From Escherichia coli (lineage in GTDB: Bacteria > Pseudomonadota > Gammaproteobacteria > Enterobacterales > Enterobacteriaceae): 7,023 nt of DNA. Location of the stretch: assembly GCF_003334785.1 (NCBI RefSeq), contig NZ_QOWV01000037.1. The stretch is one strand, 5' to 3'. Below the pieces are notes generated by a model that saw only the letters and a program-made list of their open reading frames with translations, did no database searches and was not told where the DNA came from. Of this stretch, positions 1,299 through 2,298 are shown one piece after another. Position numbers and translations under genes: made by a program. The number at the start of each line of letters is the position of its first letter. The first letter of the stretch is position 1.

Positions 1299-2298
1299 AT
1301 GAAACGACATCTGAACACCAGCTACAGGCTGGTATGGAATCACATTACGGGCACCCTGGTGGTGGCCTCCGAACTGGCCCGCTCACGGGGAAAACGCACC
1401 GGTGTGGCGGTTGCGCTGTCTCTTGCTGCTGTCACGTCAGTCCCGGCACTGGCTGCTGACACGGTTGTACAGGCTGGAGAAACCGTGAACGGCGGAACAC
1501 TGACAAATCATGACAACCAGATTGTCTTCGGTACGGCCAACGGAATGACCATCAGTACCGGGCTGGAACTGGGGCCGGACAGTGAAGAAAACACCGGTGG
1601 GCAATGGATACAGAATAGCGGGATAGCCGGAAATACCACTGTCACCACAAATGGTCGTCAGGTCGTGCTGGAGGGGGGAACAGCCAGTGATACGGTTATT
1701 CGTGACGGCGGGGGGCAGAGCCTGAACGGACTGGCGGTGAACACCACGCTGATTAACAGAGGCGAGCAGTGGGTTCATGAAGGCGGGGTTGCCACCGGCA
1801 CAATTATTAACCGCGACGGTTACCAGAGCGTTAAAAGTGGCGGGCTGGCAACAGGAACCATCATCAACACCGGCTCAGAAGGCGGCCCGGATTCTGACAA
1901 CTCGTACACGGGTCAGAAGGTCCAGGGAACAGCAGAATCCACCACCATCAACAAAAATGGACGGCAGATTATCTTATCTTCCGGGATAGCCCGTGACACT
2001 CTCATTTACGCAGGTGGTGACCAGTCGGTACACGGAAGGGCTCTGAATACCACACTGAATGGCGGTTATCCGCACTTTCAGCTCCCGGGGTGACATGAGC
2101 ATGGGTACAGCCGCCGCCGGCAGTAACATGACGTTCTCACCGTCCCAGAATGGCACGTCACTGGACCTGCAGGCCGGACTGGAAGCCCGTGTCCGGGAAA
2201 ATATCACCCTGGGCGTTCAGGCCGGTTATGCCCACAGCGTCAGCGGCAGCAGCGCTGAAGGCTATAACGGTCAGGCCACGCTGAATATGACTTTCTGA
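1299..2298 (+). pseudogene. flu: Antigen 43 (Flu) autotransporter remnant with a large out-of-frame internal deletion
   Basis: AAGGA RBS at 1287-1291 and ATG at 1299. The N-terminus MKRHLNTSYRLVWNHITG...VPALA/ADTVV is the extended autotransporter signal peptide, followed by about 230 aa of passenger domain with the typical Gly/Thr-rich repeats. Ag43-like sequence ends at ...TTLNGGY (codon ending 2069), and the frame stops at 2091-2093. The extreme C-terminus of Ag43 (VIRTFSSRGDM...GYNGQATLNMTF) resumes in the +1 frame from about 2065 and ends at 2298. Most of the passenger and translocator domains are therefore missing. Confidence 0.85.

Follow-up and report, generated by a model that had tools for sequence, protein, structure and literature searches.

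The stretch of Escherichia coli DNA analysed here (contig NZ_QOWV01000037.1, 7,023 nt; hereafter the window) carries a disrupted copy of flu/agn43, the gene for the autotransporter adhesin antigen 43 (Ag43). We are confident that this region is an Ag43/Cah pseudogene of class C2 that originated in one very recent microhomology-mediated deletion between GTTA tetranucleotides 1850 bp apart, with the loss of codons 257–873 and a shift of the reading frame. The intact counterpart is cah of the enterotoxigenic E. coli (ETEC) strain TW10722 (locus L001; 2850 nt, 949 residues, Ag43 class C2, WP_000820592.1). Compared base by base with this parent, window positions 1000–2068 are identical to L001 6001–7069 (1069 nt, 0 mismatches) and positions 2065–6218 to L001 8916–13069 (4154 nt, 0 mismatches). 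Common to both alignments is GTTA at 2065–2068 (plus strand), which is the deletion junction and holds the sole copy of the microhomology that was kept. With a slash marking the breakpoint here and below, the left parental site in TW10722 reads GGCGGTTA/CCAGTATG and the right one TTCCGTTA/TCCGCACT. The 1850 bp missing between them correspond to nt 771–2620 of the coding sequence (CDS), and as 1850 leaves a remainder of two on division by three, the deletion is out of frame. No insertion sequence (IS) or foreign DNA was found at the junction, and the hallmarks of a microhomology deletion are present: both flanks are collinear with the intact parent, one copy of the short repeat is kept, and nothing is inserted. 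Because the match to a known gene is collinear and 100% identical on both sides of one breakpoint, the junction is not a chance pattern, and the absence of any substitution over more than 5 kb of flanking sequence indicates that the deletion is very recent. Illegitimate (microhomology-mediated) recombination would have joined the two GTTA copies, presumably by replication slippage or by end-joining at the microhomology.

A preliminary description of the window, made from the sequence alone, had proposed that flu was inactivated by a large, fairly recent out-of-frame internal deletion with its junction near 2065–2069, and the comparison with TW10722 bears this out to the nucleotide. Its estimates of size need correction. 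They had assumed a full-length protein of about 1040 residues, whereas the parent here is the short Cah/class C2 allele of 949 residues and not the 1039-residue K-12 type; at least 700 codons had been thought missing and the last 78 or so barrel residues retained, whereas 1850 nt amount to about 617 codons (residues 257–873) and 76 codons (874–949) remain. The alignment that it had recommended for defining breakpoints and microhomology, made against intact cah, is the one that identified GTTA, and it revealed no continuous in-frame Ag43 variant.

What is left of the gene falls into two pieces in different frames. The truncated agn43/cah open reading frame (ORF) occupies 1299–2093 on the plus strand, with its ATG at 1299 after AAGGA, and runs for 264 codons to a TGA at 2091–2093. 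Its codons 1–52 (1299–1454) encode the extended signal peptide, which ends in PALA before AD (Pfam ESPR on the identical product; residues 6–52 of the parent), and crystallised Ag43 passengers begin at residue 53 (PMC8993888). Positions 1455–2068, 100% identical in DNA to TW10722 cah, encode the retained passenger fragment, residues 53–257 of the beta-helix stem; the product is 98% identical to residues 3–207 of PDB 7KOH, the passenger of Ag43 from enterohaemorrhagic E. coli EDL933 (Cah, z1211, class C2) (PMC8993888). The Tyr257 codon spans the junction and its residue is recreated by chance (TAC to TAT), after which the ORF continues into the out-of-frame novel tail PHFQLPG (2069–2090, plus strand). 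The remnant of the beta-barrel translocator (2068–2298, plus strand) consists of parental codons 874–949 at 2068–2295 and a TGA at 2296–2298, an assignment that also draws on reference residues 868–885; it is out of frame with the ORF and lacks a start signal of its own. Searched with NF033177, the NCBIfam model for Ag43/Cah, ORF residues 1–258 align to profile positions 1–257 of 948 (505 bits) and the other-frame peptide at 2101–2295 to positions 884–948 of 948 (136 bits), both below the curated whole-protein cutoff of 1200 bits. This agrees with the earlier observation that the N-terminal part is contiguous with the end of the barrel in a different frame.

The Pfam map of the intact parent (ESPR 6–52, AIDA repeats 97–456, AC_1 489–600, beta-domain 675–925) defines what was lost. 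In removing residues 257–873 the deletion took out the lower passenger stem, bend, foot, autochaperone, linker and about three quarters of the barrel. Of the complete L-shaped beta-helix passenger, in which AIDA repeats extend to about residue 456, only residues 53–257 are left; the autochaperone domain (PF18883, parent residues 489–600) lies entirely within the deleted CDS nt 771–2620, and the C-terminal translocator (PF03797, parent residues 675–925) is represented only by codons 874–949, out of frame. Type Va autotransporters require their own translocator for surface display or release. Lacking the remaining passenger, the autochaperone and the bulk of the translocator, the product can serve neither as a surface adhesin nor in aggregation. 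Translation would yield a 264-residue protein in which the signal peptide is followed by the first 205 residues of the passenger and by 7 residues foreign to Ag43; we infer that it would reach the periplasm at most, neither displayed nor released, and would likely be degraded there. The secreted 260-residue fragment ending in PHFQLPG that had been envisaged earlier was thus correct in its terminus, short by four residues in its length, and questionable as to secretion, as a product without autochaperone and translocator would get no further than the periplasm.

A junction of this kind could also be an assembly artefact, produced by collapse across Ag43 repeats or by a chimeric join, an objection that the preliminary description had itself raised. 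Ag43 is repetitive, with several paralogues per genome (a median of 3 places per genome), and the window, in the manner of short-read draft contigs, terminates in an IS. Three further observations weigh against the deletion as we read it, the first of which also speaks for an artefact. Among 5,426 complete E. coli genomes searched at the DNA level, none has the region in one collinear piece and none has the exact junction, the left-hand matches all ending at window 2068 and the right-hand matches beginning at 2065; the 28-mer spanning the junction had 0 exact matches in 100,044 species-representative genomes; and independent support comes from one Logan run, possibly of a close relative or of the same isolate. 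We nevertheless regard an artefact as very unlikely. Within 300 nt on either side of the breakpoints, the longest exact repeat shared by the parental flanks is 10 nt, with only 4 nt at the junction; as this is far under assembler k-mer sizes, assembly from k-mers would keep the two flanks apart. The same junction was moreover assembled independently in the Logan read-set contig of run ERR1948969 (L004), which differs from the window by 2 single-nucleotide polymorphisms (SNPs; window 2223 and 2231) and in its upstream context; the exact 264-residue product is known only from two Logan contigs, of which this is the one examined. Finished genomes also hold equivalent deletions with 1–5 nt junctions. 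That the locus still specifies a functional short Ag43 variant, for example by ribosomal frameshifting in the 2059–2093 overlap that would fuse the stub to the barrel remnant, can be practically dismissed. The two frames do overlap by about 35 nt, but such a fusion would hold only 76 of about 275 translocator residues and no autochaperone, the bit scores of both parts fall far short of the family cutoff, and no slippery site or stimulatory structure was noticed, although no aimed search was made.

The control region of the gene, which with the leader spans about 1040–1298, is retained. The agn43 regulatory region at 1043–1086 (plus strand) contains three GATC sites (1046, 1065 and 1078), and we take it to be the Dam/OxyR phase-variation switch, with OxyR binding predicted. 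The leader/intergenic RNA region at 1044–1280 (plus strand) is matched by Rfam RF00124 (IS102 RNA; 74.9 bits, gathering score 46, E = 1.5e-11). Within the leader, a very stable terminator-like hairpin and T-run at 1240–1277 (plus strand) comprise a 12-pair stem followed by TTTTTTATT; the stem (1240–1267), just before the start codon, has a folding energy of −23.5 kcal/mol (z = −5.3). The entire regulatory region is 100% identical to the DNA upstream of intact TW10722 cah, consistent with the earlier statement that the regulatory apparatus is intact, and judging from its sequence, upstream transcription and Dam/OxyR phase control are probably unaffected.

Comparison with finished genomes places the deletion in a lineage in which the same island is lost piecemeal. 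The island adjoining cadC is intact in TW10722. In strain 300709 (L002) 10,335 bp are gone, starting at the very Ag43 base that is the breakpoint in the window and reaching into an antirestriction gene, and in WS4437A-1 (L031) about 13.5 kb, from Ag43 nt 616 into a DUF4942 gene; within one ETEC lineage, three finished genomes thus show the cadC-adjacent island either intact or with different, independent deletions that start in Ag43 (L031 3001–3811; L002 6300–7239). An IS1A-bounded loss in 300709 extends from within cadC, of which a short fragment is left, to just upstream of dcuS. Upstream of agn43, the window carries a YeeP-like gene of the GTPase family (55–927, plus strand), which has only weak NCBIfam GTPase matches and whose homologous place is annotated 'GTPase family protein' in 300709 and WS4437A-1. 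It is intact in the window and in these two strains and is split by IS100 in TW10722 (L001 3096–5928). The window differs from 300709 at positions 392, 393 and 399, and from TW10722 by a few SNPs upstream of position 1000. Overall, the source of the window is therefore a close relative of these ETEC strains, and the island is decaying by repeated independent deletions. In the contig from ERR1948969 a further 23.6 kb are deleted, so that a VasL fragment directly abuts the 3' arm of the hairpin in the agn43 leader (L004 1–1590 joined to window 1261 onwards; TW10722 record 1868762; junction CCAGTTA/CCGGC). This deletion begins 31 nt from an end of ISEc23, removes that element, and takes out the GTPase gene and the entire GATC switch.

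Fragmented Ag43 genes are also frequent in a large protein collection, where dozens of Ag43 N-terminal fragments continue into either the barrel or the product of a downstream island gene, and the breakpoints are scattered over the whole length of Ag43. In many cases the deletion places the Ag43 signal peptide and a stub of the passenger in frame with an island protein that is normally cytoplasmic, the partners being antirestriction, YeeU/CbeA antitoxin, DUF987 and DUF4942 proteins (P0003, P0026, P0048, P0057, P0075, P0079, P0113). Such chimeric ORFs would be Sec-targeted.

As 300709 breaks at the same bases as the window, further cases were sought, and 22 junctions were resolved at the nucleotide level (L002, L004, L006, L008, L012, L014–L017 and L019–L031; L018, whose junction did not resolve against the reference sequences, was left out). 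Their sources include two samples of shortened Ag43 copies from complete genomes that were chosen blind to the motif. The junctions end just after TA (TA/) in 12 of the 22 cases and just after CA (CA/) in another 5 of 22, whereas simulated random deletions in the island with at least 1–2 nt of microhomology do so in 2–3% (TA) and 9–10% (CA) of cases (P about 1e-13). Under a conservative choice of 16 events, P is 2e-7 for TA and 4e-9 for TA or CA. Most junction sites resemble GG(N)YA/(N)CC, usually in both parents. The combination of G.TA with CC within 1 nt occurred in both parents in five of the first eight events, compared with a null expectation of 1.25e-4, and the reference gene contains only 10 G.TA.?CC sites, both window sites among them.

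Individual breakpoints are also re-used. The left breakpoint of the window (2064–2068), which reads GGTTA/CC, or GGGTA/CC and GGATA/CC in other alleles, recurs as the left end of no fewer than six other independent deletions (300709, L006, L012, L023, L025 and, 1 nt off, L022). It corresponds to L001 7065–7069 and to L002 7062–7069 in 300709, and lies at L006 3722–3746 (reverse strand), L012 about 1886–1900, L023 about 2350, L025 about 2340 and L022 about 2331. Including that of the window, these deletions have seven different right partners; those of the other six lie in the antirestriction gene, at the yeeR start, upstream of yeeT and at three further positions within cah. Among the complete genomes sampled blind to the motif, this left hotspot was found in 3 of 10 classes (P about 2e-7). 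A metagenome scan for the left flank followed by a non-C base recovered an allele of 97% identity in which a 2212-bp deletion connects GGCGGTTA/ with the beginning of a yeeR-like gene. In O104:H4 outbreak-type genomes (L025, FDAARGOS_401) one copy of Ag43 is a split pseudogene, and here too the hotspot base marks the start of the deletion. Right ends recur as well. The antirestriction gene (L003 4523–4535) provides a fixed right end, GGTA/ACCGCGCTG, that was used three times (GGTA/ACCGCG) and pairs with Ag43 left ends at residues 257, 167 and 115 (L002 7069, L014 about 2000 and L015 about 1846). The site ACGGGTA/CCG was used two to three times and ACGGCCA/ACGG twice. The right site of the window was also used twice, the second time in the L008/P0036 lineage, where a 76%-identical allele shows the only near-identical breakpoint pair, with the left end 9 nt further on; the complete genomes yielded no intact parent for the L008-type allele, whose left parental site is inferred. 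P0037, considered as a −1 frameshift at the shared breakpoint site, was ruled out as it reflects a G6-to-G5 homopolymer change.

These regularities could be explained by sequence-specific breakage or pausing at pyrimidine-A steps within GG(N)YA(N)CC-like quasi-palindromes, with the left site as a strong hotspot and the ends joined via 1–5 bp of terminal homology. Such a process would refine the microhomology-mediated deletion proposed here rather than compete with it, and the excess of TA/ and CA/ ends over the null and the re-used sites among the 22 junctions make it a possibility to be taken seriously, if still somewhat improbable. Two junctions end at neither TA nor CA, L019 using an ordinary 8-bp homology (ATTGTGGC) and L021 using GG; for several divergent alleles the parental sequence had to be reconstructed from related ones, L006 came to light through selection on that very site, and the motif may partly mirror the Gly-, Thr-, Val- and Tyr-rich codons of the beta-helix (Gly-Tyr, Gly-Thr and Val-Thr pairs). 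Each of the simple models tried fails on at least one junction, and the two window sites show no unusual hairpins. Alternatively, the deletion could be a scar of IS origin, left when an element formerly present at the breakpoint was excised, along with adjacent DNA, by a transposase and the IS-excision enhancer (IEE) through microhomology end-joining. IEE joins ends with 2–6 nt of microhomology, is common in ETEC and yields IS-free adjacent deletions (PMC9943667). Nested deletions with one fixed end and variable other ends fit this origin, as do the richness of the island in IS (IS100, IS66-family, IS1 and IS3) and the 23.6-kb deletion in L004 with its start close to ISEc23 and the removal of that element. 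However, none of the 60 best-matching complete genomes has an IS interrupting cah, all matching as single pieces, and the cah of TW10722 is IS-free with both flanks 100% identical, so that insertion and excision would have had to occur without a single SNP; for the window, we consider an IEE scar rather improbable. As a broader and more tentative suggestion, on balance unlikely in our view, Ag43-island deletions across E. coli could be non-random, starting and ending preferentially just after TA or CA in GG(N)YA(N)CC-like sites and at a few recurrent fixed ends that include CDS nt 770. This would imply an unrecognised, sequence-preferring activity (a break, nick or pause), which a mobile element might encode or which might be connected with a transposase or IEE, and which would shape the loss of adhesins and the decay of islands.

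Several specific mechanisms were tried and rejected. For hairpin-stalled replication, DNA folds at both window sites were no better than those of shuffled sequences (z = +1.3, −0.1, +0.7 and +0.3); the antirestriction-gene site is the only one at the 3' foot of a stem, a modest one of 9 bp (z = −1.5). Gyrase-type subunit exchange with a 4-bp stagger (G/NNNN/C) fits the window, but the junction of 300709, GGCGGTTAACCGCG, is one base too long. Cutting of GGTNACC in the manner of BstEII/Eco91I fits two sites only, and in-register ligation predicts a product one base shorter. Secondary sites of an integron integrase (crossover G/TT) fit the window and fail for 300709, and IS608-type cleavage at TTAC/ is one base off.

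Relative to known systems, the window copy resembles Cah/Ag43 of class C2 (EDL933 z1211, 7KOH; TW10722) in its signal peptide, passenger residues 53–257, upstream GATC switch and downstream genes for dynamin, RdcB and patatin family proteins; it differs in that residues 257–873 are missing and the C-terminus is out of frame, which makes it a pseudogene. Truncated Ag43 alleles are routinely discarded in Ag43 surveys (PMC6668479). Other truncated or fused alleles (300709, WS4437A-1, O104:H4 strains, TUM12355 and SW4848, among others) likewise carry deletions that are internal or run into the island, with 1–5 bp of junction homology and in several cases the left breakpoint of the window, whereas the breakpoint pair of the window (CDS nt 770 and 2621) occurs in no complete genome. 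As in short-homology illegitimate recombination or microhomology-mediated end joining in E. coli, including the IEE-associated form (PMC9943667), short direct repeats are involved, one copy is kept and no mobile DNA is left. The lesion in the window is of an ordinary, already known kind. A term search of passages from PMC9943667 found no mention of a TA/ or CA/ preference.

The remainder of the window is occupied by three genes that are intact and follow the annotation of relatives, encoding a dynamin family protein (2406–4802), an RdcB family protein (4799–5704) and a patatin-like phospholipase (5701–6771). Their stop and start codons overlap at 4799–4802 and 5701–5704. The dynamin-like protein resembles CrfC, under the cutoff of that family (557 vs. 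1146 bits), and the RdcB-family protein has 0 NCBIfam matches; together the three genes may constitute an uncharacterised module that moves with Ag43. Downstream of the gene for the patatin-like phospholipase, identity with TW10722 stops at 6953, and 6954–7023 (plus strand) is the left end, the first 70 nt, of an inserted IS66-family element. This segment is a multi-copy repeat found also on plasmids, and in JML285 the DNA matching it precedes IS66-like tnpA-tnpB-ISCro1 transposase genes (ISCro1-like). The exact insertion was found in no complete genome, and the IS66-family end probably marks a contig break.

For annotation, the locus is to be recorded as an Ag43/Cah pseudogene with defined breakpoints, and its source as a close relative of the ETEC challenge strain TW10722 that has lost an adhesin copy. 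The pseudogene itself matters little; potentially of greater importance are the recurrent, sequence-biased breakpoints, as deletions in many unrelated strains, O104:H4-type genomes among them, have their endpoints at the same few nucleotides. Should a specific mechanism operate at these sites, it would explain the frequent decay of Ag43 copies and their islands, and would offer a tractable natural system for studying the specificity of end-joining and illegitimate recombination in E. coli.
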